DNA of 63,452 nt, the filler included. It is 3 parts of 3 records of this genome, joined end to end, with 100 filler letters (N's around TTAATTAATTAA, not from the genome) between each part and the next. Parts side by side here need not be neighbours in the genome. Positions count along the whole stretch, not along the records: positions 1 to 22,313 come from SRR31156797_23904; 2 more parts are not named here. One strand, written 5' to 3'. Both the position numbers and the translations under genes were made by a program. The notes below the pieces were generated by a model. That model ran no database searches. It was not told the DNA's origin and saw only the letters and a list, made by a program, of their open reading frames with translations. Position 1 is the stretch's first letter, and each line of letters opens with the position of its first letter. Below, piece after piece: positions 3,821 through 22,828 of the stretch.

Positions 3821-3865
3821 GACACGGAACACAACCCCTTATCAGAACTTAATCGGGAATATCAG

Positions 3866-4714
3866 ATGGCTTTGCAAACACTCAAAAAAAAATTCACCAC
3901 CCTGTGGGATAAGCATACCATAGGCATTACTCTATTTTTGCTGATCCTTGCGTTTCTGATTGCATTTTTCTGGAACAGTATTGTGATTTCAATCTATCCC
4001 GGGCAGCAGGGGGTCCGGTGGTCAAGGTTCAACGGCACCCAGCTCAACGAGATAAACAGTGAGGGGCTGCATATCATCTGGCCCTGGGATATCATGTACA
4101 AATATAATACCCGGTTTCAAACAATAAACAGCACCCTGGAGATTCTAACCACCGAGGGGCTGACCATCACTGTGGATTACGCCTTCAGATTCTATCCCAC
4201 GAAGAAGGGGCTCCCCTATATTCACCAAAACCTGGGGGAAAACTATGCCCAAACCTTTTTGGAACCTGAAGTCAAGGCAGCCTCCATGTCAGTGATCGGA
4301 AATTACCCCCCCGAGCAACTCTACAGAATTTCCACCCTGGTGATCCAGGCATCCATCAAATATTATCTGAACAAACAATTCCTGGCCCGTAATATTGTTC
4401 TGGACGACTATCTGATTAAACGCATCATTCTTCCGGAACCGGTTGCCGACTCCATCGAACAGAAAATGGTTGCCGACCAGCTCAGCCAGGAATACGATTA
4501 TAAACTGTCCATTGAAACCAAGGAAAAGGAACGCAAGTCCATAGAAGCCGAAGGGATCAATTCCTTTGAAAAAATTTCAGGCATCCCCATACTCAAGTGG
4601 AAGGGCCTTGAGGTCACCCAGGAACTGGCCAAATCCCCCAACTCGAAAATTATAATCATGGGCAACGGGGACAAGGGGCTGCCCCTGCTGCTCAATACCG
4701 GCGGGAAACCATGA
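3866..4714 (+). CDS. SPFH/Band-7 (prohibitin-like) membrane protein
   Basis: One N-terminal TM, GQQGVRWSRF, EGLHIIWPW, C-terminal coiled-coil KEKERKSIEAEGI and LAKSPNSKIIIMG...GLPLLL. Confidence 0.85.
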   Translation: MALQTLKKKFTTLWDKHTIGITLFLLILAFLIAFFWNSIVISIYPGQQGVRWSRFNGTQLNEINSEGLHIIWPWDIMYKYNTRFQTINSTLEILTTEGLTITVDYAFRFYPTKKGLPYIHQNLGENYAQTFLEPEVKAASMSVIGNYPPEQLYRISTLVIQASIKYYLNKQFLARNIVLDDYLIKRIILPEPVADSIEQKMVADQLSQEYDYKLSIETKEKERKSIEAEGINSFEKISGIPILKWKGLEVTQELAKSPNSKIIIMGNGDKGLPLLLNTGGKP

Positions 4715-5708: not shown

Positions 5709-6687
5709 TAACAGCCCGGAAAAATCGCAACCCAACCTGGTAAAACGTTTTCTCACAAGGGTTGACGCAATTCTTGCAATTGGTATTTTCGTCATCGTCG
5801 TGGTATTTACCGCCACCAACATGATGAAAAAAACCGGCGATCCGGACCCCACTAACATGTCCCACAGGCAGATCCGGCAGATGTTGAAAAACGATACGGA
5901 ACAGGTCAATCTTTTTGTAAAATCCATGGAAAAAATTCCTAAGGAGATTGCGACAATCCTTGAGTTACAGCAACTCCGGACAGAAGAGATTAAAATCGTT
6001 CAGGACGCCATCATGCTCAACAGTTCCGAAATTTTCGGCACCGCCGTGGCATTTGCCCCCGGCTCATCGGGTGAAAAAAGTCCACCCAAGCCATTGTATG
6101 CCTACAGAAAGGACGGCAAAGTTAAGTACACCGTCCTGGATCATCCCGGATATGACTATGTCAATAAAGACTGGTATTTATTGCCGAAAATACTTAATCG
6201 GCCGGTCTGGGTAGATCCCTATTTTGATGAAGGCGGCGGCGGGGTATTTATGACCACCTATGCGGTCCCCTTCTCCTTTTTTGACGGTATTACAAGTACC
6301 TTTACCGGGGTGGTGACCGTGGATGTATCCATTGCCTGGTTGACCCGCTTTTGCAATACAAGGAAAAAATTACCCAACAACGGATTTATCATGCTGCTTT
6401 CAGAAGACGGCGTTGTGATCAGCGCCCCCCAAAAAGAGTGGGAGGTCAACCACACCGTGTTTTCACTTGCGGTCTCTTTGAAACTTCCTGAATTACGAAG
6501 GGTCGGACGTGATCTGCAGAAAGGTAAGTCCGGTACGGCCGTAGTGACGTCACCGGCCACCGGGAAAGCCGTAAAAATATTTTATGCGGCAGTTCCTGCC
6601 AACCACTGGGGTATCCTATATGTTATTCCTGAAAAAAAACAAGACACCTCCCAAGAAATAAGGGCGGGTGACCAGCTGTTAATCTAA
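5686..6687 (+). CDS. Membrane-anchored dCache sensor-domain protein without an output domain
   Basis: Single TM, then Cache motifs DWY..PK....P.W.DPYFDEGGG...M.TY.VP and GVVTVDV. The protein ends about 20 aa after the last Cache strand (WGILYVIP), with no second TM, HAMP or catalytic domain. Confidence 0.75.
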   Translation: MHSMSTADNSPEKSQPNLVKRFLTRVDAILAIGIFVIVVVFTATNMMKKTGDPDPTNMSHRQIRQMLKNDTEQVNLFVKSMEKIPKEIATILELQQLRTEEIKIVQDAIMLNSSEIFGTAVAFAPGSSGEKSPPKPLYAYRKDGKVKYTVLDHPGYDYVNKDWYLLPKILNRPVWVDPYFDEGGGGVFMTTYAVPFSFFDGITSTFTGVVTVDVSIAWLTRFCNTRKKLPNNGFIMLLSEDGVVISAPQKEWEVNHTVFSLAVSLKLPELRRVGRDLQKGKSGTAVVTSPATGKAVKIFYAAVPANHWGILYVIPEKKQDTSQEIRAGDQLLI

Positions 6688-6949: not shown

Positions 6950-8236
6950 TTATAAAATTTGCGGTCCTTGCCTCCCACGCGTTGAGTCTGAGCAGGGCAT
7001 TGAGGGGCTGCCTGGGATGAGGGGGTCGGTTTGCAAGGGACTGTCAAACAGCTTGCGCTGATACCCCAGACACTGGTACCCATTTTCATTGATAATGGGA
7101 ATCATATCGGTGTCAATGTCAAGTTCCTTGCGTACCCAGTAGCAGATGGACATGGAAATGCCGTAGCTGCCTCCTGTCTGCTGGAATCGCTTGAACTGAT
7201 CTTGGCAGAAGTCGCGTTCCGGTGCCGTGCGCTGCCGTTGTTTTCGATGGTCCCGGTTTTCCGGTGCCAGATAGAGATTATATAGACGCCGGGTCTGATC
7301 CGGATCAAAATGTTCCAGCAGCTGCCCGATCCAGGCCAGGTTGGCCGGGGATACGGTCAGGAATTCGGGCTTGAAATTGACGATGCCGTTTCGGTGGAGC
7401 CTGTCAAAAAATGCAGTCATCACTTCGTCGGTCAGATATGAGGGGAAAATAGGCTGAACCAGGGCGGATTCGGACAGGATGCCAAGCTCCTGGCAAGCCC
7501 GTACCGCAGCCATCCGTTCTGATACCGGCGCCCCGAAAGGTTCAAGCAAAAGACGCAGGGAATCGGGCATGATGGAGATGCTGGTGTTGAACTGCATTTT
7601 TCCTTTGAGCTGTTCAAAAAGATCGATAATACGTACGCCGTCCCGGGCATACATCAGGTGTTTGATCCCGGCTTTGGAAGCGATGAAAAGCCTTGCTTTG
7701 GAGTCCGGATACCTTTCATAGTGGCGGATAAAGGTGTTCAGTATCCTGTGGGCAATGCCGGTCTGGAGGGTGGCCTCCTGAAGCGCCTCGGTCTTTGCCG
7801 AATAATAATAGTAGTGTTCCTCGTGCCGATGTTTTTCCAGAATAGGCGCCAGAAGCCGGTCGTAATTTTCATAGGCATTAAGGGGATGTTCATGGACCCC
7901 GTCGGTGACAAGACAGTAGAGACAACCCACATGACAGCCCTGCACCGGGCTGACTTCATAGGTAAGAGTGGGACAATGTGAGGTGTAGTTATGGATTTCC
8001 AGGTTAGAGCCAAGATCAATCATCCCCAGGTCCACCCGGGACCTGGGGATGGCGGTACGCGCCTTCCAGCGGTCCACGAATGAGCGGCATCCCGAGGTGA
8101 ACAGATCCATAGTTGCCTCATCCGGTGTAACACTTACCCCGAGGGCTTTAAGGTCTTTTCTTCCTATCATCCTGGGTGCAAACCCTTTTAAGTTGTAAAT
8201 ATCCGGCTGGTTATCGTAAATTGGTGTCAATTTCAT
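6950..8236 (-). CDS. Radical SAM enzyme, spore-photoproduct-lyase-like family
   Basis: The ORF track gives +, but the protein reads from the minus strand (CAT at 8234-8236 = ATG AAA TTG ACA; TTA at 6950-6952 = TAA). CxxxCxxC motif in SPVQGCHVGCLYC, LEP.GAP..ER.AA motif, extra Cys in SHCPT, SICYW and YQCLG. Co-oriented with the NRPS genes. Confidence 0.85.
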   Translation of the reverse strand: MKLTPIYDNQPDIYNLKGFAPRMIGRKDLKALGVSVTPDEATMDLFTSGCRSFVDRWKARTAIPRSRVDLGMIDLGSNLEIHNYTSHCPTLTYEVSPVQGCHVGCLYCLVTDGVHEHPLNAYENYDRLLAPILEKHRHEEHYYYYSAKTEALQEATLQTGIAHRILNTFIRHYERYPDSKARLFIASKAGIKHLMYARDGVRIIDLFEQLKGKMQFNTSISIMPDSLRLLLEPFGAPVSERMAAVRACQELGILSESALVQPIFPSYLTDEVMTAFFDRLHRNGIVNFKPEFLTVSPANLAWIGQLLEHFDPDQTRRLYNLYLAPENRDHRKQRQRTAPERDFCQDQFKRFQQTGGSYGISMSICYWVRKELDIDTDMIPIINENGYQCLGYQRKLFDSPLQTDPLIPGSPSMPCSDSTRGRQGPQIL

Positions 8237-8327
8237 CTATTTTCCTTTATTGGTGTTCTCTGACCGTTCAGGCCAAAGCAATGTCTTCCAGAATCTGTCA
8301 TATTGGGTTCTACCCATCTTTCCCAGA

Positions 8328-9881
8328 TTAGAGCCTCCTCAAGGTTACAGGGTCAGCCAAAGCTGCCCCATCCACCTTGCCGTTAGCGTTCAAAGGGAGG
8401 CTATCCAGCTCTTCCACACGGCCAGGGACCATTTGAACCGGCAGCGTATCCTGCAAATAATCCTTAATATTGTGAAAAAATGCATCGGTGTTTGCCTGTC
8501 CGCTGGACCTGACCACATAAGCGGCCAGGCCTGTTTCACCGTTCTCACGGATAAAGGGCCGGACATAGGCGTGCCGGACTTCCGGGTGGCTCAAAAGGGC
8601 TGTCTCTACCTCCACGGTTTCGATACGGCAACCCCTGATCTTGATCTGATGATCCTTCCTGCCCCTGAAATAGATCTGCCCGTTTTCGCCCAGTCTGCCC
8701 AGATCTCCGGTCCGGTACATACGGCTAAAGTCAGGGTCCTGTCTTTCCGGGTCGTACAAAGGATTGGCCGTAAAACCCTGGGCCGTCTTAAGGGACTGGT
8801 TCAGGTACCCGGCACAGACCTGGTCTCCGGAAATGCAAATTTCACCGGGCCTGCCCGGCGCACAAAGGGAAAGGTTTTCATCCAGTATCATCACTTTCAT
8901 GCCGGGCAGGGCCTGTCCCAGGGGATAGTCGGATAGTGGACGGGTAATCGGAAAGGCCGTGACATAGGCAGTGGTTTCGGTAGGGCCGTAAAGATTAAAT
9001 ACCTGATAACTTCTGGGGACAAATTCACGCAGTACCTCTCCGCCGGTGAGCAAGCGGCGTAAATTTGGATTGTCAAAGGTTTGCATATACGCCTCCCCCA
9101 CCCGGGTGGTCAAAAATGAGATTTCGATCTTATGGCGCATATAGTACCGGTGAAGGGCCACAAGAGAGATGCGCTCCGCCTCTCCCAGCAGGTAAACCCG
9201 GGCCCCTGCGACCAAAGGTGCATAAAGGTCCATCACAAAGGCGTCAAATGAAACTGTTGCAAAGGCTGCCACCCGGCTATCCACCGTGATATCGTGAAAT
9301 GCGTTATGCCGCTTGGCAAAACCCAGGACATTGGCATGGGTGAAAATCACCCCCTTAGGGTTGCCCGTGGTGCCGGAGGTATAGTAGACCAGCATGGGAC
9401 TGTCCCCGGACAACAGATTTTCCCGTTCCGCCTGGGTCTGCTGCAGGCATTCGGACTGCCGTGCGTCAATTTGCCACGTTTCCGATTGCCATAAATCAGG
9501 GGTCACCGCCTGGCAGGAGCAACCCGGGAACCGATCCGCCAGGTCCTGGTGGGTCAGAATGAAAGGAGCACCAGTATCTTTGAAAATATATCGAGCACGA
9601 TTCAGGGGGACGTCCGCGGCCAGTTGCGCGGCAGCGGCCCCGGCTTTTATCACCCCCAAGGTCCAGACAACGCAATCCAGCCCCCGGTTCATGATAACCG
9701 GGATGGCCATCCCCTTCCTGCAGCCGGCTTTGATAAGTTTTTCTGCCGCCAGGCTGCTGAAGATATCCAGCTCCCGGTAGGTCAATCTGTGTGCGGCCTC
9801 TGCCTTGTAGCAAAGCGCCGGAGTGTCGGGATATTGCCCGGCCAGGTAACCCAGAACTCGAGAATAGGTCGTTTGTTTCAT
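8328..9881 (-). CDS. Stand-alone NRPS adenylation domain
   Basis: LTYREL, YYTSGTTGNPKG, FDAF, NLYGPTE, GEICISG, YRTGDL, GRKDHQIKIRG.RIE, NGKVD. No T or C domain. Confidence 0.92.
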   Translation of the reverse strand: MKQTTYSRVLGYLAGQYPDTPALCYKAEAAHRLTYRELDIFSSLAAEKLIKAGCRKGMAIPVIMNRGLDCVVWTLGVIKAGAAAAQLAADVPLNRARYIFKDTGAPFILTHQDLADRFPGCSCQAVTPDLWQSETWQIDARQSECLQQTQAERENLLSGDSPMLVYYTSGTTGNPKGVIFTHANVLGFAKRHNAFHDITVDSRVAAFATVSFDAFVMDLYAPLVAGARVYLLGEAERISLVALHRYYMRHKIEISFLTTRVGEAYMQTFDNPNLRRLLTGGEVLREFVPRSYQVFNLYGPTETTAYVTAFPITRPLSDYPLGQALPGMKVMILDENLSLCAPGRPGEICISGDQVCAGYLNQSLKTAQGFTANPLYDPERQDPDFSRMYRTGDLGRLGENGQIYFRGRKDHQIKIRGCRIETVEVETALLSHPEVRHAYVRPFIRENGETGLAAYVVRSSGQANTDAFFHNIKDYLQDTLPVQMVPGRVEELDSLPLNANGKVDGAALADPVTLRRL

Positions 9882-9918: not shown

Positions 9919-12900
9919 TCAACCCCCCTCATCCAGGGTCAGTGCCCGGTCCAAAACAGCCCCAGCCAATTCCCGGGTCATTTTGGGCCAGACAAATCCC
10001 AAATTCGCCAGCAAGGCGATAGTCCAGTCCATTTTTGCCTCACCACTAAAAATTTCACCCTCTGCCCTTTCCCTTTCCTGTTGCCCTATCCATGCCAGAA
10101 ATTGCCGGGCAGCTTCTGCCCGATCTTCCGGCTCGGCCTGGCCCATGGTGCTCAGTTGCGCTTTCAGGGCTGTAACCGGAAGTCGGCGAATGGCCTTTTC
10201 CTTGGGCAAAGCCATGGAAAGGATCTGGGACAGGGCAATCTGGTGGGGATTGTCGATGTGAAAGATCCCTGAGCCAAGGTCTGTCCGGCGGGCAAGCAGG
10301 CGGATGGCTCTGGCAGCCTGGTCCACAAAGGTCGGCCCCATCTTGCCGGTTCCATCCAATGCCATGCCCGTCTTTGCGATCATCCGGGCCAGACGCAGAA
10401 ACATGTTGCTTGGGGCAGCCTGGGGAAACCGATGATTTGCCGTATCAAGAATAAGGTTTCCCGTACGAAAAATCTGGCAATCCAGACCCCGGTCTCTGGC
10501 ACTAAGGACCCGTTTTTCAGCAGCCTGTTTTGTTCGGGAGTAGTGGTTCCGGGCAGGTGGGCCAACATCTTCGGTAAGTTCGGAAAAATCCGGCAGGTTA
10601 ACCGCACTCAGGGTGGAAATATGGACAAACCGGCAGTGTTCGTGCCGGGCGGCCAGTTCCAACAAATGTTCTGTGGCCGTCACATTGGCTGCGGCCAACA
10701 GTTTCGGGCTGCCGTAGTGGTTAACGGCGGCCGCCGAGTGAAGGATCATATCCAGGTGGGGAAGACATGTTTCCAAAAAGTGCACATCCCGGGAATGGCT
10801 CAGGTCCGCGGAAACAGGGAGAATCCGCTTTCGGTCCAGCATACGGTTAGCATCAGTCCTGCCGAAATAAAAGCAAAGGCTTGCATGCAGCCGATCCCAT
10901 GGATCTTTGGCTCCCCGCACCGGCACCAGGATTGTAGCCGCTGTCCGATCCCGATACTCTTTTAAGAGAAATGCACCGAGATAACCTGTAGCCCCGGTGA
11001 TCATAATTTTGTGCAGAGCAAGGGGACGCGCCTTTGGAAGACGGGGCGCAGTAGCCACAAGGTTCTGATAATACGGGTCCTCCCCGGTGCTTTGATAAGT
11101 TCCTGTATGCTTGCGTTCGCCTGTCTTTCCGCCGACGTAATCGGTACATTCCTTTTTTTGTGTACGGGCAGAGCCCTTGGCTACCGGTCTCATGCAGACT
11201 GCCAGGTCAGAAAGCTTTGGGGCTTTGAAAAAATCCTGAAGTTCAATAGAATGGGTGTCGGCCATGTGCCCCATGACATTGAGCAACTGGAGGGAATGCC
11301 CCCCAAGGTCGAAAAAATTATCTTCCCGGCAGATATCTGAAATGCCCAGAACCGCCTCCCAGGAACGGGCCAGGACCTTTTCCGTATCAGTCCGGGGCCG
11401 GGAGCCTGACGCGGTTTCAATAAGCGGTGGCGGCAATTGATCTGTGTCCAGCTTGCCGTGGGCGTTCAACGGCCACTGCCGTACCACTGTAAATGAAGAC
11501 GGCATCATATAAGCCGGCAAACGAGACGCCGCAAAAGCCTGAATCTGATCCTGGGTACAAGGGCTGTCCTGGAGCGTATAATAGGCATCCAGACGGCTGG
11601 GTTGACCGGTTCGATCATTTTGGACCATCACATGGGCACCCCGGACACCAGGCGCGGCCAGCAGCACCCGGCGGACCTCTTCAATTTCAATCCGATACCC
11701 CCGAATCTTGATCTGACCGTCGGCGCGTCCCAAAAACTCCAAATTTCCGTCCGGCAGCCAGCGAACCCGGTCACCGGTTCTGTAAATCCGCTCAAATCCA
11801 GGCCGGTCAGAAAAAGGATTATTCAGAAAAACCCGGTCTGTTTCCACGGGCATTCCCAGGTATCCTTCGGCTAGCTGGGGGCCCGAAAGACACAGTTCCC
11901 CCGCCACACCCACCGGACAAAGTTCCAAACCGGCGTTGACCACATAAACCTGAACATTGGCCAAAGGACGCCCGATGATACGGCTGGCACCAAAAAGCGT
12001 TGAGACGGGGCAGGTGGTAACCTGAATACAGGCCTCGGTAGGGCCGTAGGCGTTAATTACTTCAAAATCCACCGGCATAAGCCTTTGGGGTGATTCACCG
12101 CCCACAGCCATGGTGACCAGGGAGCGGGGAAATCCGCCGCGTCCACCGGCCTGACCAGTCGGCACTTTTCGGGCATGGTCAAAAAGCAGATCACCCACCC
12201 GGGTCGGCAGAGCTAAACGAGTGATGCCAAGGCGGTGGAGGGCCGCCATAAGGGCAGCACTGTCCACGAGCAGTTCTCCGGGCGCCATGTGTACGCAGGC
12301 ACCGCCGGCCCATGAGGGGAAGAGCAGCCACAAAGAAGGATCAAAGGAAAAAGCAATGGTATGAAGGACCTGGTCGTAGGGGCACAGCCCGAACCTGTCC
12401 AGGGTCCACGCGACCTGGTTGGCCAGCGCCCGGTGGGGTACAGCCGTTGCCTTGGGACGACCGGTAGTACCCGAGGTACAGATGACATAAGCCAGATCTC
12501 CGGGGGACGGCTCCGGTAGAAGCCCGGCGTCGCCGTCGGCTTCCAGGTTCCCAAAATTCTCTGTCAGGATAAGAGTCTGAAGGCAAATATCAGCGGGTGC
12601 CAGGCAGTCCGTAACCAAAGCGCAGGCATTGGTGAGTGCCAGCATGTCGTTGATCCGGGAAACAGGCCAGTCCGGTGCCAGGGGCAGATAGGCTGCCCCG
12701 GCCTTCATGATCCCTAAGGGTACGGCCGCCCCGGCAATGCTCCGGGACATGACAGCCCCGATCACGCAGCCCCTGCCCGCTCCCATGGCTATCAACCGAC
12801 GGGCCAGCTCATCGGTCCGGGTATCAAGCTGTCCGTAAGTCAGGCAGGTCGTCCCATGTACCAAAGCCGGCAGGTCTGTATATCGTCCGGCAGCTGCACA

Positions 12901-15900
12901 AAAGGCATGAACGGCAGTGGGAAAATCAATGGTCAGATCCCTGCCCCGGCCGAATTGTTCTGTAAGCTGCCGGACATCTTCAGCCGGGAGACGGGAAATT
13001 ATTCGGGCAGGCAGGTCCGGGCGGTTCAGCACCCGTTTGATTCTGGCCCGGAACTGTGTCCTGAGCCTGTCTGCCAGTGCCGGCGGTACAGCCCGGGGAT
13101 GGAATCGGAATTCGGCGGCAGAATCTACCCCGCCGTCCCGGAACAGAATCACCAGGTCGTATCCGTCACTGCCGTGGGTGGATAAGGGGCTGGGAAAATT
13201 TGCGTTATCCTCTCCGACGCGTTCAAAGGAAAAAAGGTGACGGGGCAAACGGCCGGCCATGGTGTCAGGCACGTCATACCTGGATTGAATCAAATCCATT
13301 TCATCCTGGACAGCCGAGGCAAAGCCTGTAAAAGATTGATCGCCGACCAGAGGACGGATCAACGGCAGGGTCCTGGCGCACATACCCACGAGGGATTCAA
13401 TCCCGGACAGAGGCGGCCTGCCTGCGGAAACAAACCCCAGCATCATTGACCCCTGTTCCGGACAGTCGGCATAGTGCTCCAGAACCAGCACCCAAATCGC
13501 CATGAAAAATGCCGCAGGCGTGATCCCTTCCTTTTGGGCTGCAGCCTTGCTGGCCATAAATTCATCAGAGGAAAGCAGCGCAAGGCTCCGGATCAGGTCT
13601 GAATCGGCAGCGTCTTCCTTGACAGTCTCCTGGGTAAGCAAGACGGGCAAATTCGCCGGCATGGCATGGGCGGGAAATTTTTCCTCCCAAAAATCCCCGG
13701 AGGCGTGATGGTCAAATATCGCGTCTTCGGATCTTTCATGACGGGGAATTCGGGCATGAATCCATTGGAGATATTCCCCAAAGGAGAGAACCGGCGCAGA
13801 CGACGCGGGTACGCTGCCGAAGAGTTCATCAAACAGGATACCCAGACTCCATCCGTCCAGGATCAGGTGGTGGTAATGAAACAGCATCTCCAGGTGCCCC
13901 TCCGCCATCCTGAAAAATTCCAGGCGGATCAGGGGGGGCTTAAATGGATCCAGCCCCGCTTTCATATCTGCCATCCGACCGATAAGTTGCGATCTGATAT
14001 CCTGGGGGCTCTCATCATGATAAACAAAAGGGATTTCCATCCGGGGGGGTACGACCACCCAGGATGCCCCATCCCCATCCAGGGCAAAACAGGACCGCAG
14101 GAGGTCGTGACGTTCCATGGCAGAGGCCAGGCGGCTACGGATCTCTTCCGGAGACGGCGTGGTGTTCGCAAGCTTGTAATGTCCGGTCACGGCATAGGCG
14201 TTTGGCCCGTATATTGCGGCCTGGGTGAGCAACATTCTCTGGGTAGGCGTGGGGGGAAGAACGATTGTCCCCTTACCCCAGACAGCTTCCATTGATCTGC
14301 AAAATCCGGCATCGGGAAGAGGCAAGGGCACTGATTTGTATTCAACCCCTTCGGCATCCGGAGGGGTTTTCGTATTCGGGGCCACCATCTTTGCCGCCAG
14401 CACCCTGAGGGTGGAACTGGTCATGATATCCCTGAGGGAAACCTGCCACCCCAGACTTTCCAGTCGGGCGGCCAGACGGATGGCGTTGATGGAGTCCCCG
14501 CCCGCTGCCAGAAAACTTTGCAGCACATTGGCATCTATTCCAGGCAGCAAGTCTGCCAGGACGGTCAAGAGAACATTTTCGGCCGGTGTATCAGGGGAAG
14601 CGACCGGAAAGTCCCCGGCCCGGCCTTCCGGTTCCGGGAGTGCGCGAAGATCTATCTTGCCTCCGGGAGTCAACGGCAGAGCATCTATCCGAATGATCGC
14701 GGGGAGCATATGGGACGGTAGTTTCTCAGAAAGAAAAGCCATGATCTCCTCTTTCCGGAAACTATGGGAGGAGGAGACCACCCATGCAGCCAGCCGCTTT
14801 TCACCTCCGGCTGTCGGCGCTTGCAAAGCTGCCACAGCCCTGTCGATCCAGGGATGGGACTGGAGCACGCTTTCAATTTCCCCCAGCTCCACCCGGAATC
14901 CCCTTACTTTAACCTGATTGTCCATACGGCCCAGGAAGATCAGGTCACCCCGTTCATCGTCCGGTGCTGTCTGCCAGTAGGCCAGGTCACCGGTGCGGTA
15001 AAGCCGTCTGTGCTCAGACTCGTCACGGTCCGGATTAAAAAAAGGATTATCTATGAATTTTTCAGCGGTCAACGGATCGTCTCCCAGATATCCCCGGGCC
15101 ACCTGAACACCTGAAAAACACAGTTCTCCCGGTACGCCCAAGGGCACGAGCCGACCCATGCTGTCAATAATAAAAGCCCGCATCCCGGGAAGGGGTCTGC
15201 CGATGGGGATGGGCGTCAAGTTCTGTGACAAAGTATATGACGTACAGGTCACCGTGCATTCAGTGGGACCGTACTCGTTGACAACAGTGTAAGGCACCCG
15301 GGTATAACGGCCAATGGCGTCCCCGCCTGTGGCCAAAAAACGCAAGGCAGACGGGGCATTGCTGCCTGGGAACCTGTCCATAAACTCCTCGGCCATGGCA
15401 ACGGGCAGGTCCATGTGGGTGATACGTTCCCTAATCACGTAATCCCTTATCCGATGCAGGGTATGCTGGCTCCCTTCCCCCAGAATATGAACGGTCCCGC
15501 CGCTGAACAGGGCAGAATAGAAACCCCAGATGGCCACGTCATAGGCGAACTCGGTCTGGATAGCGGCGCTCATATCCGGCCCCCAGTGGTACCGGTCCAT
15601 GGCCCAGGTGCAAAACGCCACGGCATTTCGGTGTTCCACCACCACGCCCTTGGGGCGCCCTGAGGTACCGGAGGTCATGATGATATAGGCCGGATCCTCT
15701 GGACAGGCAGATCGGTAGGTCTTGTTTTTTCTCCCGGCAGCCGGTGGATGCCCAAGCCGATCAAAATTTTCTTCATCCAGCACCAGATCCGGATCTGTAT
15801 CTGCCAAGACCTGTCGGACCCGGTCAAACCGCCATTCCGGGGAAAGGGGCAGATAGGCGGCTCCCGCCTGGAGTACGGCCAAGGCCGCAATGGCGATCCG

Positions 15901-17442
15901 GTGGGATCGATTAAGCGTAAAGGCCACCAGATTGCCCGGCCCAACACCCTGGTCGGCCAGAGCATCAGCCAGGGCATCCACACGGCTTGCCAGTTCACCA
16001 TAGGTCATGCGGGTACTTTCCCAAACCAGGGCGTTTTTCTCTGAATGGGCTGCAGCCGCATTCCGCCAGAGCGTTGCCAGGGTGTGACCGGCGGCCCCAG
16101 GCAACGGCGGATCATAGGACAGCAGCAGAGCCGTCTCTTCATCCGGAAGAAAAGCAATATCTTTCAAACCGATATCCGGGTTCCGAACGACAGCGGCCAG
16201 GATGTTGCAAAAATGGACGGCCGCGCGTGTCACGGCCCGGGTCGAGTATTTTCGAGTATCGTAAGAAAAGCAGGCCTGAACCGTTTTTCCCAGTTCGAAA
16301 CCGGCAGTAAAGCCTGCCACAGCCTCCCCGTATCCCCGGACCCACTCGGGACCGTCTGCCGGGGGGGCAGGGTCAGCCACAAAGAGAAGATCAGCATAGC
16401 CGGGTATCATTTTGTTCAACACGGTGGGGGAGGCAAATCCGTGACGCTCATCCGCTGATACCTGGGTGTTCCATTCCCTGATCCAGGCGGAAAAGGCCTT
16501 TTCTTCGGGTAGATCCAACCGGACCGGAATGGTATTGACACACATACCGACCATTCCAATCACCCCGGGCACCGTTCCCATACGGCCGTTGATAACATGA
16601 CCGAACCCAACCCGTCCCCCGTTGTACCGGCAAAGCAGCAGTGCCCACAAAGCCTGAAGCAGGCGTCCGGGTGAGATGCGCAGCTGCCGGGCCAGACCAT
16701 ACAGACGGACGCTTTCCGGCAATGAAAACCGGTGGTGTGCGCAGTCCCAAGCCATATTGTCTGTTTCTTGATCTGAAATTGGGCCTGTCACCTGGCCGGG
16801 GAACCGGCTCGCCTCAACGCCGGCAAGCCGGGCCTGCCAATAGGCAAAATCTGACTGAATGTCCCGCTTTGCCAGAAACCGGAGATACCGGCTAAAGGGC
16901 ACCCCTTTGTCTCCGGTCGCCTCTTGGGCCAGAAGCTGCTTCATCAGAATGGCCAGGCTCCAGCCATCCAGGACGGCGTGGTGGAAGATGATTCCCACAT
17001 CCCGGATGCCTGTACCCGGCCCGAACCTGTCAAACAGGACCAGTCGACACAGGGGACCGGTAAAAGGGTCTATCCCTCTTGTGCGAACCGCTTCAAGATA
17101 GTCGCCGATGGCCAGGTCCTGATCTTCGGTACTGCGACCGGAGAGATTTTGGCAGCTGAATCCGGGAAGATGGCCTTTAGGAAAGGCCTGGGTCAGGTTC
17201 CCGTCATCATCGAGGAAAAGCCGGGTACGCAGGACCGGATGGATCTGGGCAAGCCCATGCCAGCGCCGGCGAAGTTCATCAGGATCACAGAGACGGGGAA
17301 GCCTGAAATGAATCAGTGAGAGGTAGCGGGGAGCAGACTTTTGCCCGGATGCCGAAGACTGTGTCGACGCAATAGAGTCAAAGACCATTCCCTCCTGCAT
17401 GGGGGTCAGGGGAAACCGACCGGGAATATCAGGCAAATTCAT
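9919..17442 (-). CDS. NRPS, C-A-T-C-A-T-R (terminal thioester reductase)
   Basis: C: HHAVLDG and HHLILDG. A: TSGTSGRPKG/NEYGPTE and TSGTTGRPKA/NAYGPTE. T: GGDSI (Ser 14491-14493) and GGHSL (Ser 11293-11295). R: ITGATGYLG, HSAA.VNH, YSRTK. Likely start ATG 17442 overlaps the upstream NRPS stop. Confidence 0.95.
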   Translation of the reverse strand: MNLPDIPGRFPLTPMQEGMVFDSIASTQSSASGQKSAPRYLSLIHFRLPRLCDPDELRRRWHGLAQIHPVLRTRLFLDDDGNLTQAFPKGHLPGFSCQNLSGRSTEDQDLAIGDYLEAVRTRGIDPFTGPLCRLVLFDRFGPGTGIRDVGIIFHHAVLDGWSLAILMKQLLAQEATGDKGVPFSRYLRFLAKRDIQSDFAYWQARLAGVEASRFPGQVTGPISDQETDNMAWDCAHHRFSLPESVRLYGLARQLRISPGRLLQALWALLLCRYNGGRVGFGHVINGRMGTVPGVIGMVGMCVNTIPVRLDLPEEKAFSAWIREWNTQVSADERHGFASPTVLNKMIPGYADLLFVADPAPPADGPEWVRGYGEAVAGFTAGFELGKTVQACFSYDTRKYSTRAVTRAAVHFCNILAAVVRNPDIGLKDIAFLPDEETALLLSYDPPLPGAAGHTLATLWRNAAAAHSEKNALVWESTRMTYGELASRVDALADALADQGVGPGNLVAFTLNRSHRIAIAALAVLQAGAAYLPLSPEWRFDRVRQVLADTDPDLVLDEENFDRLGHPPAAGRKNKTYRSACPEDPAYIIMTSGTSGRPKGVVVEHRNAVAFCTWAMDRYHWGPDMSAAIQTEFAYDVAIWGFYSALFSGGTVHILGEGSQHTLHRIRDYVIRERITHMDLPVAMAEEFMDRFPGSNAPSALRFLATGGDAIGRYTRVPYTVVNEYGPTECTVTCTSYTLSQNLTPIPIGRPLPGMRAFIIDSMGRLVPLGVPGELCFSGVQVARGYLGDDPLTAEKFIDNPFFNPDRDESEHRRLYRTGDLAYWQTAPDDERGDLIFLGRMDNQVKVRGFRVELGEIESVLQSHPWIDRAVAALQAPTAGGEKRLAAWVVSSSHSFRKEEIMAFLSEKLPSHMLPAIIRIDALPLTPGGKIDLRALPEPEGRAGDFPVASPDTPAENVLLTVLADLLPGIDANVLQSFLAAGGDSINAIRLAARLESLGWQVSLRDIMTSSTLRVLAAKMVAPNTKTPPDAEGVEYKSVPLPLPDAGFCRSMEAVWGKGTIVLPPTPTQRMLLTQAAIYGPNAYAVTGHYKLANTTPSPEEIRSRLASAMERHDLLRSCFALDGDGASWVVVPPRMEIPFVYHDESPQDIRSQLIGRMADMKAGLDPFKPPLIRLEFFRMAEGHLEMLFHYHHLILDGWSLGILFDELFGSVPASSAPVLSFGEYLQWIHARIPRHERSEDAIFDHHASGDFWEEKFPAHAMPANLPVLLTQETVKEDAADSDLIRSLALLSSDEFMASKAAAQKEGITPAAFFMAIWVLVLEHYADCPEQGSMMLGFVSAGRPPLSGIESLVGMCARTLPLIRPLVGDQSFTGFASAVQDEMDLIQSRYDVPDTMAGRLPRHLFSFERVGEDNANFPSPLSTHGSDGYDLVILFRDGGVDSAAEFRFHPRAVPPALADRLRTQFRARIKRVLNRPDLPARIISRLPAEDVRQLTEQFGRGRDLTIDFPTAVHAFCAAAGRYTDLPALVHGTTCLTYGQLDTRTDELARRLIAMGAGRGCVIGAVMSRSIAGAAVPLGIMKAGAAYLPLAPDWPVSRINDMLALTNACALVTDCLAPADICLQTLILTENFGNLEADGDAGLLPEPSPGDLAYVICTSGTTGRPKATAVPHRALANQVAWTLDRFGLCPYDQVLHTIAFSFDPSLWLLFPSWAGGACVHMAPGELLVDSAALMAALHRLGITRLALPTRVGDLLFDHARKVPTGQAGGRGGFPRSLVTMAVGGESPQRLMPVDFEVINAYGPTEACIQVTTCPVSTLFGASRIIGRPLANVQVYVVNAGLELCPVGVAGELCLSGPQLAEGYLGMPVETDRVFLNNPFSDRPGFERIYRTGDRVRWLPDGNLEFLGRADGQIKIRGYRIEIEEVRRVLLAAPGVRGAHVMVQNDRTGQPSRLDAYYTLQDSPCTQDQIQAFAASRLPAYMMPSSFTVVRQWPLNAHGKLDTDQLPPPLIETASGSRPRTDTEKVLARSWEAVLGISDICREDNFFDLGGHSLQLLNVMGHMADTHSIELQDFFKAPKLSDLAVCMRPVAKGSARTQKKECTDYVGGKTGERKHTGTYQSTGEDPYYQNLVATAPRLPKARPLALHKIMITGATGYLGAFLLKEYRDRTAATILVPVRGAKDPWDRLHASLCFYFGRTDANRMLDRKRILPVSADLSHSRDVHFLETCLPHLDMILHSAAAVNHYGSPKLLAAANVTATEHLLELAARHEHCRFVHISTLSAVNLPDFSELTEDVGPPARNHYSRTKQAAEKRVLSARDRGLDCQIFRTGNLILDTANHRFPQAAPSNMFLRLARMIAKTGMALDGTGKMGPTFVDQAARAIRLLARRTDLGSGIFHIDNPHQIALSQILSMALPKEKAIRRLPVTALKAQLSTMGQAEPEDRAEAARQFLAWIGQQERERAEGEIFSGEAKMDWTIALLANLGFVWPKMTRELAGAVLDRALTLDEGG

Positions 17443-20400
17443 CGTCCTCGTCGTCAAAAGCGTCTGCAGGTTCTATCATTTGCATCAACTCACCCAGCCG
17501 GGCCTGCTCATAAATCGTGGTGGCCGGCAGGTACCACCCTGTTTTGAAAAGTTCCGCCTCCAGGCGCATGGCGGTAATGGAATCGCCCCCCAGCTCAAAA
17601 AAATCGTCATCCGGCTCAGACGTGGAAACGTTCAGAACCTCCTGCCACGCAAAAATCAAGGCCTGTGCCGCCATATCATTCCCGGTCAAATCCGCATCAG
17701 AGGAACGCTGCGGGATGTGCGCAGTGTCATCCTCCCCTTCCGGTTTTAATTCATGCAGAATTTGGCCTGAAGGCCAGGGTAGCTGGCCCAGAGGCCGGCC
17801 TGGCTCGGCGCAGGCTGTCCGGATAACCGTTGCCATTGCATCTGCCCAGCCCTTCATCAGATCGGGTTGGAACAAGTCCCTGGCATAAATCAATTCCAGA
17901 AAAATCTGATCCCGGCCCTCCCGGATCTCAAGGATCATATCGAACATGGCCGTGGGACGGTTGACCCCTGGAACAATCCTGGCGCAGACCTCTTGGTCCG
18001 CCGATTTTAACACCGGGAAAGACCGGGGCTGGGGAAGCCGGTTGATCATCACGTCGAACAGGGGACTTCGCCCTGGAATCCGGGAGGGCTTGACCAGCTG
18101 AACAATCCGTTCAAGCGAGCAGGTCTGGTGTTCCCAGGCATCCAGAAAGCCTTCCCGGACCTCCCGAAGCCAGTCTGAAAACGGCTGGGCCCCGTCCTGT
18201 ACCGGTCGAAGACGCAAGGGCAGTGTTCTAACAAACATCCCTTTGCAAAACTGGAGTGCCGGATGATCCCTTCCAGCAAAAGGCACGCCCATCACGATGT
18301 CGTCAAACCCTTGGGTAACGGCTGCTTGGCGAGAAACAAATGCGGCCCAAACCGCCAGCATAATTTGAAATACGGAGACCCTGTAAATCTCGGCCAGTTT
18401 TGCCAAAGCGTCCCGGTCCTCTTTTCCCAGGACCACCCGGGCAACGGCACTGCCCCCTGTCAGGGCAGAGGGTCTGGGGGAAACAGCGCCTGAAAGATCC
18501 AAGGGCGGCGGGAGGTCGTTCAACTGTTCCTGCCAGAAGTTTTCAGATATTTTAAGTTCCCGCCTGTCTTGCCGATTACGGTCCCAAAGGACATAATCGG
18601 TCATTAGAACAGTCTGACCGCCTCCTGGATCGTGAATTTCTCCAGCCATGTACAAATCCCACCAGGCATCCATCAAAAGACGGGACGAAGCCGCATCCAC
18701 GAGGATATGATGGGTTGTCAGCCCCAAAAAACTGCAACGGGAATTGATTTCGATACGGACCACGTAAAAGAGAGGCGATCGGGACAGATCAATGGCCGGC
18801 CGGGCAAGACTTAGTTTCTCCCACAGCAGGCGTGCCTGTTCCGGATCCGACGCATGATGACACTCAAAATCATAGGTCACGGTATCGTCGATCACCCAGG
18901 CCGGCTCCCCGTCCGTCTCAATAAACCTGGAGCGCAGGAGAGGCTCCTGCTCAACCAGCCTGGCAAACACTTCTTCCAGCCGATGGCCGTCAACATCCCC
19001 TTCCACCATCATGCAGGTATCTATTTCGTAAGCCCGTGGATCTTTGCCCAGACGCCACACCAGGTACATCTGCCGCATGGGCATGGTCAGGGGATACCGG
19101 TCCCGGGGTGGAGATGCGGGAATGCGTGATACGTCGGCCGCATCCCCGGCCAGATCAATCATTTCAAGAACTGCCGACGGCCAGGGTCTGCGAAAAATTT
19201 CTCCGTATGATAAATCAACTGAAAACTCGCTGCGCAGCATAAGCTGAAGCCCCGCAAGTTTCAAGGAATCCCCCCCCAGGGCAAAAAAATTGTCCAAAGG
19301 GTTGACACTGGAAACCAGTAGTTTCTTTGCAAAAATTTCACACAGGCGGCCCAGGCGTAGATTATGATCGGGCACTGAATCCTTTAGATCAACAATACCC
19401 GCAGACGCCATGTTTTGCGCCGGAAATTGTGGAAGCCGGGAGCGCTCAATCTTACCGTGTACCCCTCTTGGCAAGGCCTGCATTATTTTAATCCGGACAG
19501 GCACCATGTACTCGGGCACAAGGGCGGTTAGCTGGGATTTCAGGACCTGGGAGTCAAGTTTGTCTCCTGCGGCCCAGGCGTAAAGGGCCATCCCGTGATC
19601 GGCCGTTTTTTGAGCAACGACCACACATTCACGTACGCCGTCACAGCTATTCAATTTCACTTCCACATGACCCGGATCCACACGCATCCCGCGAATTTTT
19701 ACGACAAAATCACTGCGCCCGCAATGGACCAGCAGTCCGTTTTCATCCAGGCGAGCCTGGTCCCCGGACAGATAAAGGCGGTTGTAGCCGGAAGCATCCA
19801 TGCCGTCAAATGAACTCGAATCTGTCAGAGGGGGCGTATACACTGAAGGTTGGACATGGGTAAAGGGATTGGTGATGAAACACTCCTGTGTCCTCTCCGG
19901 CATCCCCAGGTACCCCCTGGCCAAGGACGGGGAACTTACCGCCATTGTGCCCATCTCTCCCGGACGGATCATATTATTTTGATCATCCAGGAGATAGATC
20001 CGGGAAGGACCAAATGCCCTGCCCAGGGGAATATTGGATTCATATGCCTTTTGGATGGATAAAAATGTGACGGAACCACCGTTTTCAGCCATGCCCAGGG
20101 AGTACAAAATTTCGTAAGGGGTATGGGAACAAGAGCGCAGGGGACCGCCGGCCACCCGGACATACTTCAGGGACTGTCCGCTGCAGTTGTGGCTGAACAT
20201 CTCAGCCATATCCGGAGAAAGAAAGACGTATCGAATTTCATGCCTCTCAAAATAGGTCTCCAGGGCCAGGGGATCGCGTCGCACCGTTTCACTCAAAATA
20301 TGCAGGGTCATGCCGGAAGCCAGGGGATAAAGCAGTTCCCAGGGCGCAGCAATAAACCCCAAAGGCGCAAAAGCTGCGGTGTGTGATCCGGGGGGGAGAT

Positions 20401-21040
20401 CCATGTATGATTTTTGCCAGGCCAACATGGAAGAGATGGCCCGGTGCTCAAGAACGGCACCCTTAGGCTGCCCGGTGGATCCGGAGGTAAATATGGCGGT
20501 GGCAATATCCCGTGGGTTTGGAATAAACCGATCCGATGCTTCAAAAGACTCTGACACCGCTTTTTTGTGAAGCCCCGGATCGGTCAGGTCGATGCAGGGG
20601 ATGTTCTCCAGGCCTTGATTCCCGGGCTCAGAAGTCAATATCGCCGTCACGAGGGTTGTTTGGGCAATCTGACGAATGTAGGCCTCGGGAGCGTCACCGG
20701 GCACGCAGATATAAGCCCCGCCTGCCCGGAGCACCGAAAGAATGCCCACGGCCGCAGCAACGGTTCTACCTGTCAATACCATAATCCAGGGGGACACATC
20801 TGCCTTTTCCGGATAACCAATGTCGTAATTTTCAGGACAGGAACTTTCACCCAGACCCAAAGCCCTGAGGCGACCGGCGACCAAGCGCGAAAGCCGGTCT
20901 AACTCCTTAAAGGTTAGCTGCTGCCGGTCATCCCTGACCGCAGGCCGATCTGGATAAGTTGCCGCACATTTGTAAAACTGTTCCAGAAATGAAATTCCGG
21001 ACAGAAACTCGAAGCTCACTTCGTCAACACAGGAAGTCAT
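17429..21040 (-). CDS. NRPS, A-T-C-T (atypical starter A domain; second module lacks A)
   Basis: A: LTFKEL, IFTSGSTGQPKG, degenerate FIAAPW / SLGMAE / YLSGDQ, HGKIER. T: GGDSL (19265-19267). C: HHILVDA. T: GGDSI (17579-17581). Acidic C-terminal tail DAFDDEDDEFA. Confidence 0.93.
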   Translation of the reverse strand: MTSCVDEVSFEFLSGISFLEQFYKCAATYPDRPAVRDDRQQLTFKELDRLSRLVAGRLRALGLGESSCPENYDIGYPEKADVSPWIMVLTGRTVAAAVGILSVLRAGGAYICVPGDAPEAYIRQIAQTTLVTAILTSEPGNQGLENIPCIDLTDPGLHKKAVSESFEASDRFIPNPRDIATAIFTSGSTGQPKGAVLEHRAISSMLAWQKSYMDLPPGSHTAAFAPLGFIAAPWELLYPLASGMTLHILSETVRRDPLALETYFERHEIRYVFLSPDMAEMFSHNCSGQSLKYVRVAGGPLRSCSHTPYEILYSLGMAENGGSVTFLSIQKAYESNIPLGRAFGPSRIYLLDDQNNMIRPGEMGTMAVSSPSLARGYLGMPERTQECFITNPFTHVQPSVYTPPLTDSSSFDGMDASGYNRLYLSGDQARLDENGLLVHCGRSDFVVKIRGMRVDPGHVEVKLNSCDGVRECVVVAQKTADHGMALYAWAAGDKLDSQVLKSQLTALVPEYMVPVRIKIMQALPRGVHGKIERSRLPQFPAQNMASAGIVDLKDSVPDHNLRLGRLCEIFAKKLLVSSVNPLDNFFALGGDSLKLAGLQLMLRSEFSVDLSYGEIFRRPWPSAVLEMIDLAGDAADVSRIPASPPRDRYPLTMPMRQMYLVWRLGKDPRAYEIDTCMMVEGDVDGHRLEEVFARLVEQEPLLRSRFIETDGEPAWVIDDTVTYDFECHHASDPEQARLLWEKLSLARPAIDLSRSPLFYVVRIEINSRCSFLGLTTHHILVDAASSRLLMDAWWDLYMAGEIHDPGGGQTVLMTDYVLWDRNRQDRRELKISENFWQEQLNDLPPPLDLSGAVSPRPSALTGGSAVARVVLGKEDRDALAKLAEIYRVSVFQIMLAVWAAFVSRQAAVTQGFDDIVMGVPFAGRDHPALQFCKGMFVRTLPLRLRPVQDGAQPFSDWLREVREGFLDAWEHQTCSLERIVQLVKPSRIPGRSPLFDVMINRLPQPRSFPVLKSADQEVCARIVPGVNRPTAMFDMILEIREGRDQIFLELIYARDLFQPDLMKGWADAMATVIRTACAEPGRPLGQLPWPSGQILHELKPEGEDDTAHIPQRSSDADLTGNDMAAQALIFAWQEVLNVSTSEPDDDFFELGGDSITAMRLEAELFKTGWYLPATTIYEQARLGELMQMIEPADAFDDEDDEFA

Positions 21041-21381: not shown

Positions 21382-21921
21382 TTAGGCGGCTGCAGTTGCG
21401 CCCCGTTTTCCGGCAATCAAGTCTGCCATTTTTTGTCTGGCAACCTGAACGGCAGACTTAAAGCTGTCCGAGAGCTCACCTGCCGCCGTCCCAACAAGGG
21501 AACCGCCCTGGGCAAAATGTGTGGCAAACACATGCCCCAGTGCGTAGGTACTTACCCCGTTCAACACCGGTCCTGTGGCAATGGCCAGGGGAAGCCCCAC
21601 CAAGGGAATGGCTAAAGCAACGCCCCCGACCGCTGGAGATGCCAGGCTAACCGCTCCACTTGAAAGCAGGCCGGATATGATATTTCGCGCGGCAGTTTCG
21701 CTAAAGGTTTTATCATACTTGGTACAAAGGCTTTTAACAAGCCCGACTTGAATGGCGGTAACTCCGGCAAAATTAATTAAAGGTAATCCCAGAAGGCCGA
21801 CGCCGGCAGCATAGTTGGCACGCCTGCGAATGAGCTTAGTGATTTCCTCCGACGCCGGATCAATCGGCTTGGGGGCTTCGGTAGTCTTGTTTTCTTGTTT
21901 TTCCTGCATTTTTTCGGTCAT
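21382..21921 (-). CDS. DUF697/YcjF-like hydrophobic helical protein
   Basis: Pattern I....YAAG.GL..LP....AGV.AIQ..LV..L...Y...F and STYALG.VF..HF..GG.L. Start ATG 21921 follows GAGGGA. Confidence 0.7.
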   Translation of the reverse strand: MTEKMQEKQENKTTEAPKPIDPASEEITKLIRRRANYAAGVGLLGLPLINFAGVTAIQVGLVKSLCTKYDKTFSETAARNIISGLLSSGAVSLASPAVGGVALAIPLVGLPLAIATGPVLNGVSTYALGHVFATHFAQGGSLVGTAAGELSDSFKSAVQVARQKMADLIAGKRGATAAA

Positions 21922-22313
21922 ATTCCCTCGCATGACAATTGTTTACTGTGAACACCACAGCGTTTGTATTTGTCCCGTTTATCGGAACCGGGCCCTCAGA
22001 AGACCCATAATAGTTTTGGGGATGCATGTTTAAGTTTTGAAACTATAATCAATTCACATTTGTTTCGCAAGAATAAATTCGCAGCTAACGCAACTGGAAA
22101 TTGTTTGGATGCTGAGGGAGAACTATTTTCACCTCAGCCATCCTGGGCTTGTCGGAATGAAAAGGGATATGCCCGGTATATTAAGAACCGTAGATTAAAA
22201 AGTTTTTCGGACCAGGGTCGACGTTAGGCAATTGGCATCATCCTTTTCCGGATACCACAGATTGTAGTGCAGCCCGCGGCTCTCCTTGCGCATTAATGCG
22301 GACTTAATGATCA

Positions 22314-22413
22314 NNNNNNNNNNNNNNNNNNNNNNNNNNNNNNNNNNNNNNNNNNNNTTAATTAATTAANNNNNNNNNNNNNNNNNNNNNNNNNNNNNNN
22401 NNNNNNNNNNNNN
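22314..22413. other. Artificial contig spacer (44 N + TTAATTAATTAA + 44 N)
   Basis: Exactly 100 bp with an all-frame stop linker, identical to the second spacer. Confidence 0.98.
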
Positions 22414-22828
22414 ACGACAGCGCCGCGAGGTCACGGAGATTCGCTTCCGGTGAGGCATACCCGGCGATGATGAAGGCGAGGGGGCCGGCGACGACCAGGC
22501 CGAACTGCGGCACCGCCATTCCGAATCCGTTGCCGCCCTTGATGGTGGCGGCGAAAGCCACCAGTGCGGCCATGATCATCACCGGACCGCGCCACGATGA
22601 GCGGAAGTATTGGGCCGAGGATTCACGCTGGAAGATGCCGGTAACCAAGATGATGACCCCGGCGACGAACAGGATCATCGACAGGCCGCGCGGCAGCATG
22701 CCCGGGCCGAAATACTTGATGGTTCCGATCTCGAGGGGCTCGACCTGGAACCACGCGATCAAGGCGATGAGAATCAAGGAAAGTCCCGAGAGGACGTTGA
22801 TGCGAAGCACCTTCGAAGGCCCGGCCAA
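22414..22828 (-). CDS. tctB: TctB-family tripartite tricarboxylate transporter small subunit, truncated by contig end
   Basis: L.IGT...FGPGMLP motif and several TMs. Probable TTG start at 22828 after GGGAGG. Confidence 0.75.

Follow-up and report, generated by a model that had tools for sequence, protein, structure and literature searches.

A radical SAM enzyme with a spore photoproduct lyase-like fold, last gene of a nonribosomal peptide synthetase operon, may supply an unusual acid to several amide-forming pathways

The last gene of a nonribosomal peptide synthetase (NRPS) operon, found in a stretch of DNA of 63,452 nucleotides (filler included; the whole stretch is called the window below, and its positions 1 to 22,313 come from SRR31156797_23904), encodes a radical S-adenosylmethionine (SAM) enzyme with the fold of spore photoproduct lyase (SPL). 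This enzyme, which we call rSAM, is most likely an acid-building and not a DNA-repairing enzyme, because its relatives adjoin carboxylate-activating, amide-forming enzymes. Our preferred reading, to which we give a probability of about 40%, is that rSAM would make an unusual, probably amine-free, dicarboxylate-type acid unit, which is then N-linked. What is new here are the NRPS-linked and the CoA-transferase-linked clades of the family, a starter adenylation (A) domain of the NRPS that lacks the amine-binding Asp, and the idea that unites these contexts.

The evidence comes chiefly from the company that rSAM genes keep. There are 599 database relatives of rSAM at E ≤ 1e-3, and the best 120 of these are mostly 50-90% identical to it and about 400 aa long. 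A genome scan gave 180 relatives, the best 80 loci of which were analysed, with the neighbours counted by a tblastn census and the proteins placed in a maximum-likelihood tree of 81 rows. Clade A of this tree, supported by a value of 98 in the Shimodaira-Hasegawa-like approximate likelihood-ratio test (SH-aLRT), joins the window and loci L001-L011 from four phyla (Thermodesulfobacteriota, Pseudomonadota, Planctomycetota and Bacillota), and all 12 rows are NRPS-linked. The cluster is found in Desulfobacteraceae, Sedimenticolaceae, Planctomycetota and gut Clostridia; ATP-binding cassette (ABC) transporter genes and an SPFH gene lie within 5 kb at 11 of 11 loci each, and an A domain within 10 kb at 10 of 11, the miss being a 4-kb contig that bears an NRPS fragment. 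The seven loci of clade C (L022 included) all have, within 300 bp, a CoA-transferase of family III and a single-module NRPS of the order C-A-T-TE (C, condensation; T, carrier; TE, thioesterase). Clade B comprises 61 loci of Bacteroidota, Fibrobacterota, Bacillota and Actinomycetota, and here the neighbour is a Cp1B-like ATP-grasp ligase of about 400 aa, within 300 bp at 53 loci and within 5 kb at 58, all three misses being contig ends. At the clade-B loci neither an NRPS nor an A-domain gene lies within 10 kb; the further neighbours there are WbqC (50 of 61), for which no functional study was found in the literature searched, a GT2 glycosyltransferase (44) and a DegT aminotransferase (29).

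Genes for an NRPS, a CoA-transferase or an ATP-grasp enzyme are thus linked to rSAM at 76 of the 80 loci, and this linkage follows the protein tree, with a divergent Coxiellaceae locus (L080) showing none of these neighbour sets. The constant partner of rSAM is a carboxylate-activating, amide-forming enzyme. An earlier note made from the letters of the window (the sequence-only reading) had named clustering with DNA-repair SPL homologues outside biosynthetic gene clusters as an outcome that would speak against a biosynthetic role; no such clustering was seen, and the NRPS-linked clade stands on its own with the SH-aLRT value given above. The pattern may also extend to more distant proteins. 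A metagenome scan for such relatives gave three loci, two of them informative: one relative of about 25% identity (L099) adjoins an ATP-grasp gene of the L-amino-acid-ligase type and an MFS exporter, and a second, also about 25% identical (L100), adjoins a phosphopantetheinyl transferase (PPTase) gene and an AMP-binding gene. The L099 ATP-grasp (3196-4264) is split in two adjacent open reading frames (ORFs) of 83 and 271 aa, with a Mutator-family transposase upstream; the split suggests a frameshift or an assembly error.

Taken at the level of their sequences, the starter A domain, the CoA-transferase and the Cp1B-like ligase all speak for an acid without an amine. No Pfam hit was obtained for the clade-B ligase, and its sole sequence match in the Protein Data Bank (PDB) is Cp1B (9cjn, E 4e-13). 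It retains the R and D (of WRPD) and the E among the four acyl-phosphate-site residues of Cp1B, as matched with a numbering offset of +15 that we inferred. The substrate that Cp1B phosphorylates is trans-epoxysuccinate, a diacid without an amine, which it then couples as an amide to hydrophobic L-amino acids (PMC12568646). Dicarboxylate enzymes are the nearest matches of the clade-C CoA-transferase: succinate-hydroxymethylglutarate CoA-transferase (SUGCT, 9br7) is matched at E 1e-73, and the NCBIfam scores are 327.6 bits for succinate-glutarate, 260.5 for succinyl-CoA:mesaconate and 255.4 for CoA:oxalate. Together with the N-terminal C domain of the neighbouring NRPS, this transferase fits the delivery of an acyl-CoA starter. 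The clade-C C domains are nearest to the first C domain of NRPS1 in the window (51-64 bits, vs 0-50 for the other two) and have the HHIxxDA motif in common with it, which is weak evidence.

The starter A domain of NRPS1 (residues ~26-536) reads GFIAAPWE in place of FDxS, with the amine-binding Asp235 changed to Ile. It further has an Arg at aligned position 299, an A5 motif LGMAEN instead of NxYGPTE, and an insert of about 17 residues after the first helix region. This signature recurs, at 32-46% identity, in six genomes that are phylogenetically far apart, namely L003 and five of the five other clade-A genomes searched. The stand-alone A enzyme of the operon has a code that is conserved across phyla, namely DA[ML]FLG[LI][AVI]YK in the window, L001, L004, L010 and L011, and DSLFLGLVYK in L009. 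We tested whether the clade-C A domains have a code in common with the stand-alone A, and they do not: the clade-C codes (DVAFTAAVFK, DVATTAAIYK, DVASTAAIYK, DVGCTVAIYK and DMVNIGGVYK) are quite different, so no A-domain amino-acid specificity travels with rSAM. In the two Oscillospiraceae clusters (L010, 7414-8679; L011, 7363-8670; L084; L085), the stand-alone and starter A proteins, of 421-435 aa, begin to match at about residue 160-175, as though the N-terminal portion of the A domain were absent or separately encoded.

A known system that can be set beside the window is the E-64 pathway of fungi and cyanobacteria, with its Cp1A oxygenase, Cp1B ATP-grasp and Cp1D ligase. There, one enzyme makes an amine-free diacid, which a ligase then amidates with a hydrophobic amino acid, a basic unit coming next (PMC12568646). 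The order predicted in the window is similar (acid, hydrophobic residue, basic residue), and the clade-B ligase is a homologue of Cp1B. The two systems differ in that acid formation in the window would fall to a radical SAM enzyme in place of an O2-dependent Fe/2-oxoglutarate oxygenase, and in that ligation in the window would be carried out by an NRPS; the acid there is putative, and an epoxide is not implied.

By sequence comparison, the rSAM family is compact, highly conserved, isolated and uncharacterised. A search of 1.84 billion representatives gave 169 matches at E ≤ 0.001, and 35 that reach E ≤ 1e-30. For many homologues a precomputed PF04055 hit is on record, database sources label homologues 'DNA repair photolyase', and the ESM Atlas relatives are only 'hypothetical protein' radical SAM clusters. 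No published account of the family or the cluster was found, most subscription journals lying outside the literature searched. The closest genome, that of Desulfobacter vibrioformis DSM 8776, has an rSAM 90% identical to that of the window and the same gene order. Across 62 close sequences, 98 positions are invariant. Three further cysteines, C88, C365 and C389, are invariant in these 62 and also in a set of 14 whose identity falls as low as 22%; relatives down to this level retain H82, C88, the cluster cysteines C101/C105/C108, K188, E232-P233, R241, K332, R336, C365 and C389. C248 is invariant in the close family only and is lost in distant relatives. The family traits (a length of about 400 aa, the invariant residues and a carboxylate-activating neighbour) are all present in the window protein, where the neighbours are NRPS A domains.

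That so many positions are invariant despite differing downstream products argues for one small common substrate, and an anionic substrate would suit the many basic residues that are invariant. For the substrate, the sequence-only reading had proposed one of three: a free amino acid, an intermediate bound to the carrier, or the peptide after its release. We infer from the contexts a small free acid, probably lacking an alpha-amine, that is made before ligation, and keep the amino acid and the tailoring of a product as rivals. In the mechanism we propose, a [4Fe-4S] cluster on C101/C105/C108 would cleave SAM, and the resulting 5'-deoxyadenosyl radical would abstract hydrogen from a primary metabolite that is small and anionic and is bound by the invariant K148, R182, K188, R241, K332, R334 and R336. 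The substrate radical would then rearrange or fragment, and would be quenched by C88, or else its electron would be passed to a second metal site of H82/C88/C365/C389. Such a metal site is possible; a four-Cys auxiliary cluster of C88/C248/C365/C389 was also considered and is weakened, C248 not being kept in distant relatives. The acid would be N-linked by the starter module in the window, by the CoA-transferase and the starter C domain in clade C, and by the Cp1B-like ligase in clade B. In the window, the Asp-less starter A of NRPS1 would load the acid, the chain would take up in turn a hydrophobic residue (from the stand-alone A), a basic one and a fourth one, the reductase domain would release the product as an aldehyde or alcohol, and the ABC pair would export it.

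Several points weigh against this reading and should be gathered in one place. The neighbourhoods were analysed for the best 80 loci out of the 180 relatives. The Cp1B match is modest at 52 bits and indicates the ligase family, not the substrate, and the clade-C CoA-transferase stays below every NCBIfam equivalog cut-off. The A-domain pocket positions were set by hand using motif rules, and the Arg at position 299 of the starter A rests on one alignment. Gene co-occurrence cannot tell action of rSAM before ligation from action after it. The L099 ligase, being of the L-amino-acid-ligase type, would fit an amino-acid product; and in the window rSAM adjoins the stand-alone A, which bears Asp235, and not the starter A domain.

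The kinship with SPL is best seen in the structure. An AlphaFold2 (AF2) model of rSAM, made from the alignment of 62 sequences, has a predicted local distance difference test score (pLDDT) of 86.1 and a predicted TM-score (pTM) of 0.86. Its top fold match in the PDB is SPL (4fhc), with Z 19.8 and a root-mean-square deviation of 3.4 Å over 278 residues that include the N-terminal part, at 15% identity; the next match is at Z 13.9. With its CxxxCxxC motif and a partial TIM-barrel core, the protein belongs to the radical SAM superfamily, as do its fold matches listed between Z 8.6 and 19.8, apart from some designed proteins and a small number of (beta/alpha)-barrel enzymes, all of these at Z 8.6-9.6. 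Foldseek gave an E of 1.2e-7 for the model against SPL, and a profile-profile comparison with six SPL-family proteins from Lachnospiraceae genomes gave a probability of 93.9% (E 1.6e-7, 164 columns). The family thresholds tell a different story. rSAM scores 20.6 bits to the Pfam Radical_SAM model PF04055, below its gathering threshold of 29.5, and has no match at E ≤ 0.01 to the Pfam SPL model PF20903 (cut-off 27 bits), to which true SPLs from Lachnospiraceae score 201-410 bits. Its best NCBIfam matches, PA0069 (NF033668, 33.7 bits vs a cut-off of 360) and Rv2578c (NF038135, 33.3 vs 430), are far below threshold, and a profile of the family had no match among PDB sequences at E ≤ 1. As modelled, rSAM is SPL-like by fold, not by family threshold. 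The 'SPL/Rv2578c-like' label of the sequence-only reading therefore holds for a distant similarity with SPL as the nearest solved fold, and does not extend to membership in PA0069, Rv2578c or Pfam SPL, whose thresholds it fails. PA0069 and Rv2578c share with rSAM membership of a broad SPL-like group, in which, to our knowledge, the function of both is still unassigned and SPL is the only member of the fold group with a known reaction, namely DNA repair.

The catalytic residues can be compared one by one. Clostridial SPLs have their H-donor Cys at a relocated position. In Bacillus SPL, residue roles are described for C141, Y97 and Y99, with C141 as the H-donor and Y99 (Tyr99) as the radical relay (PMC3742179). 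At the position of Bacillus C141 (Geobacillus C140), rSAM has A147-K148-T149 by hhalign, or A151 by the +43 spacing, and no Cys. In C105-L-Y107-C108-L109 of rSAM, Y97 is kept as Y107, and Tyr99 is replaced by L109, an invariant or near-invariant Leu. The clostridial-type Cys, which precedes the first cluster Cys by 14 residues, faces H87 of rSAM in the alignment and C88 is one residue off, in a part of the model with a local pLDDT of 63; this Cys position corresponds to S76 in the title of PDB 4rh0 (C140A/S76C). The earlier suggestion that a Cys serves as H-atom donor is thus plausible for the invariant C88, and does not carry over in the Bacillus form, whose C141 and Tyr99 equivalents are absent. 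In sum, rSAM and SPL both have the SPL fold and a CxxxCxxC motif with a Tyr before the third Cys; rSAM differs by its extra invariant H82, C365 and C389, its own C-terminal region and its biosynthetic setting, as opposed to spore DNA repair. Tandem SPL-family genes were seen in one Lachnospiraceae locus (L091, 1471-2520 and 2755-3765; 410 and 235 bits to PF20903), where the first alone carries the Cys that lies 14 residues ahead of the cluster motif, and the second belongs to a CTAMCLYC subgroup seen in four other genomes.

The strongest of the rivals, though one we consider unlikely, is that rSAM is a tailoring enzyme acting on the amide product or on a carrier-bound intermediate, for instance by radical epimerisation or C-H functionalisation beside the newly formed amide, with C88 returning the hydrogen. 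The rSAM gene is the last of the operon, C88, which is invariant, is off by one residue from the H-donor-type Cys of a clostridial-type SPL, and, since an amide-forming enzyme is present in every context, an amide product is present as a possible substrate in every context as well. However, these products (a reductively released tetrapeptide, an N-acyl amino acid and an acylated sugar) must differ greatly, whereas the enzymes share over 50% identity and 98 positions that are invariant, and the clade-B loci, without an NRPS or A-domain gene within 10 kb, speak against a carrier-bound substrate there. The sequence-only reading had brought up radical SAM peptide epimerases such as EpeE in this connection. 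Like rSAM, these belong to the radical SAM enzymes, and in both a Cys may return a hydrogen atom, but the match of the rSAM model to EpeE/YydG (8ai1) is weak (Z 8.6, rank 50), and the partners of rSAM are ligases and NRPSs, not genes for RiPPs (peptides made on the ribosome and modified after translation); a precursor peptide gene was not evident, small peptide genes not having been searched for. Fused or longer forms of rSAM (750-2140 aa) were not found at E ≤ 1e-10, so that fusions to carrier or recognition domains are not seen among longer proteins, which is weak evidence.

Rather less probable still is that rSAM supplies a non-proteinogenic amino acid, which the stand-alone A would load on the A-less carrier of NRPS1. 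The gene does follow the stand-alone A directly (by 91 bp), the latter keeps Asp235 and a code conserved across phyla, and a distant relative adjoins an L-amino-acid-ligase-type ATP-grasp. But the pocket of the stand-alone A is plainly hydrophobic and fits an ordinary branched-chain residue, the clade-C A codes are quite different, and the clade-B ligase matches Cp1B, whose electrophile is no amino acid. As for housekeeping DNA or RNA repair of the SPL/PA0069 kind, adjacent to the NRPS by chance, the SPL fold, the 'DNA repair photolyase' labels and the weak PA0069 and Rv2578c matches are what would suggest it, and we regard it as very improbable in view of the ligase-type linkage at 76 of 80 loci that tracks the protein tree, the scores far below every family cut-off, the absence of the Bacillus-type catalytic Cys and the Tyr99 equivalent, and a genome (G001) that carries rSAM and has its own true SPL elsewhere (PF20903, 205.8 bits).

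With the preferred reading of rSAM as a maker of an acid unit in mind, we turn to the operon itself (Table 1). On the minus strand the order is DUF697, NRPS1, NRPS2, stand-alone A and rSAM, and the plus-strand ABC, SPFH, NMT1 and dCache genes converge on this operon. The gene order and the motifs of the rSAM translation agree with what the sequence-only reading had described: a minus-strand gene, last in the operon and 91 bp (8328-8236-1) downstream of the stand-alone A, with CHVGCLYC, SHCPT, SICYW and YQCLG all present. The 91-bp spacer holds an AAGGA-type ribosome-binding site upstream of the rSAM ATG, and no terminator-like site was found on its minus strand. Inside the rSAM gene itself, at 8021-8051 on the minus strand (codons ~62-72), there is an inverted repeat with a perfect 13-bp stem, 9 G-C pairs and a loop of 5; there is no T-run after it, so it is probably not a terminator. 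The start residue of rSAM aligns with the start of its homologues. The C-terminal ~26 residues (6950-7030 in the window) form a tail unique to this species, without counterpart in relatives and with pLDDT below 50 in the AF2 model, and this tail is a read-through, because CAA in the window replaces the TAG stop of Desulfobacter vibrioformis (L001).

Table 1. Features of the NRPS cluster in the window and of the rSAM protein.
Feature	Coordinates	Strand	Description	Source
SPL-fold radical SAM (rSAM) gene	6950..8236	minus	intact, 428 aa, ATG start	ORF listing of the stretch
rSAM cluster motif	within 6950..8236	minus	CHVGCLYC = C101-x3-C105-x2-C108	translation
rSAM further cysteines			SHCPT = C88, SICYW = C365, YQCLG = C389	translation
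rSAM basic motif			H330-x-K332-Q-R334-x-R336-T-A-P	
Spacer, stand-alone A gene to rSAM gene	8237..8327	minus	91 bp	
Stand-alone adenylation enzyme	8328..9881	minus	517 aa, without carrier domain; pocket code DAMFLGLAYK, hydrophobic, Asp235 present	
NRPS2	9919..17457	minus	2512 aa, C-A-T-C-A-T-R (R, terminal reductase)	
NRPS1	17429..21040	minus	1203 aa, A-T-C-T	
DUF697 protein	21382..21933	minus	first gene of operon, kept in NRPS-linked clade	
Two ABC transporter genes	397-2205, 2174-3820	plus	membrane and ATPase parts fused; kept beside rSAM in NRPS-linked clade	
SPFH/Band 7 protein	3866..4714	plus	kept in NRPS-linked clade	
NMT1/THI5-like binding protein	4716-5708	plus	signal-like N-terminus	
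dCache/PDC sensor-like protein	5686-6687	plus	without output domain	

The synthetases have four carrier domains but three in-line A domains, and therefore the stand-alone A most likely serves the second, A-less carrier of NRPS1, as predicted from the domain order. The A codes of NRPS2 are DVWDAGEVTK, an acidic pocket in the third module, and DPWAAGAIQK. In two Sedimenticolaceae loci (L002 and L003) the ABC, SPFH, NMT1 and dCache genes form one co-linear series with those for rSAM and the NRPSs, all on a single strand, and for this reason the cluster is taken to span ~397-21933. These two loci are whole-cluster copies on two contigs of one metagenome-assembled genome, with rSAM proteins 78% and 81% identical to that of the window, and both have a PPTase gene between dCache and DUF697. 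The NMT1-like and dCache genes overlap by 23 bp, and the pair, which may serve in sensing or uptake, stays with the cluster in Desulfobacter and Sedimenticolaceae alone. Genes for a TctB-like protein, a short-chain dehydrogenase, an amidohydrolase_2 protein and an IclR regulator are located upstream of the operon (22358-24826, minus; 25394-26194, plus); they have no counterpart in the 80 loci and are therefore probably a separate unit. The clade-B cassette has an rSAM of the same family, 50-57% identical, and differs in that its acceptor would be an amino sugar of a surface glycan; the window belongs to a separate clade and has an NRPS cluster with SPFH, DUF697 and an ABC exporter.

We would also like to mention a bolder extension, which is speculative and which we hold to be improbable as it stands: the rSAM family may be an oxygen-independent route to an electrophilic diacid warhead, one and the same unit being installed in three ways by anaerobes. 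From a primary dicarboxylate (malate, aspartate, fumarate or succinate, for example), rearrangement or a radical dehydrogenative ring closure would give a unit that is strained or unsaturated, like epoxysuccinate or an aziridine dicarboxylate. The product of the window would then be a warhead-hydrophobic-basic peptide aldehyde resembling E-64 or leupeptin, and in the other clades the unit would be placed on N-acyl aromatic amino acids (the CoA-transferase clade) and on capsule amino sugars of rumen bacteria. If this were true, it would mean a new radical SAM reaction type, and a new class of protease-directed metabolites in sulfate reducers and gut anaerobes.

The wider interest of the family lies in the fact that a conserved relative of SPL is tied to three or more unrelated amide-forming pathways in anaerobes of at least seven phyla. 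The hypothesis that one small unusual acid is common to the NRPS, the CoA-transferase plus NRPS and the ATP-grasp plus sugar pathways is a testable one, and the CoA-transferase clade offers a very simple three-gene system for finding the acid. If the hypothesis is true, radical SAM chemistry would gain a new reaction and a cassette that is common in rumen bacteria would be explained, and the hypothesis would reveal the product class of the clade-A NRPS cluster of Desulfobacteraceae, Sedimenticolaceae, Planctomycetota and gut Clostridia.

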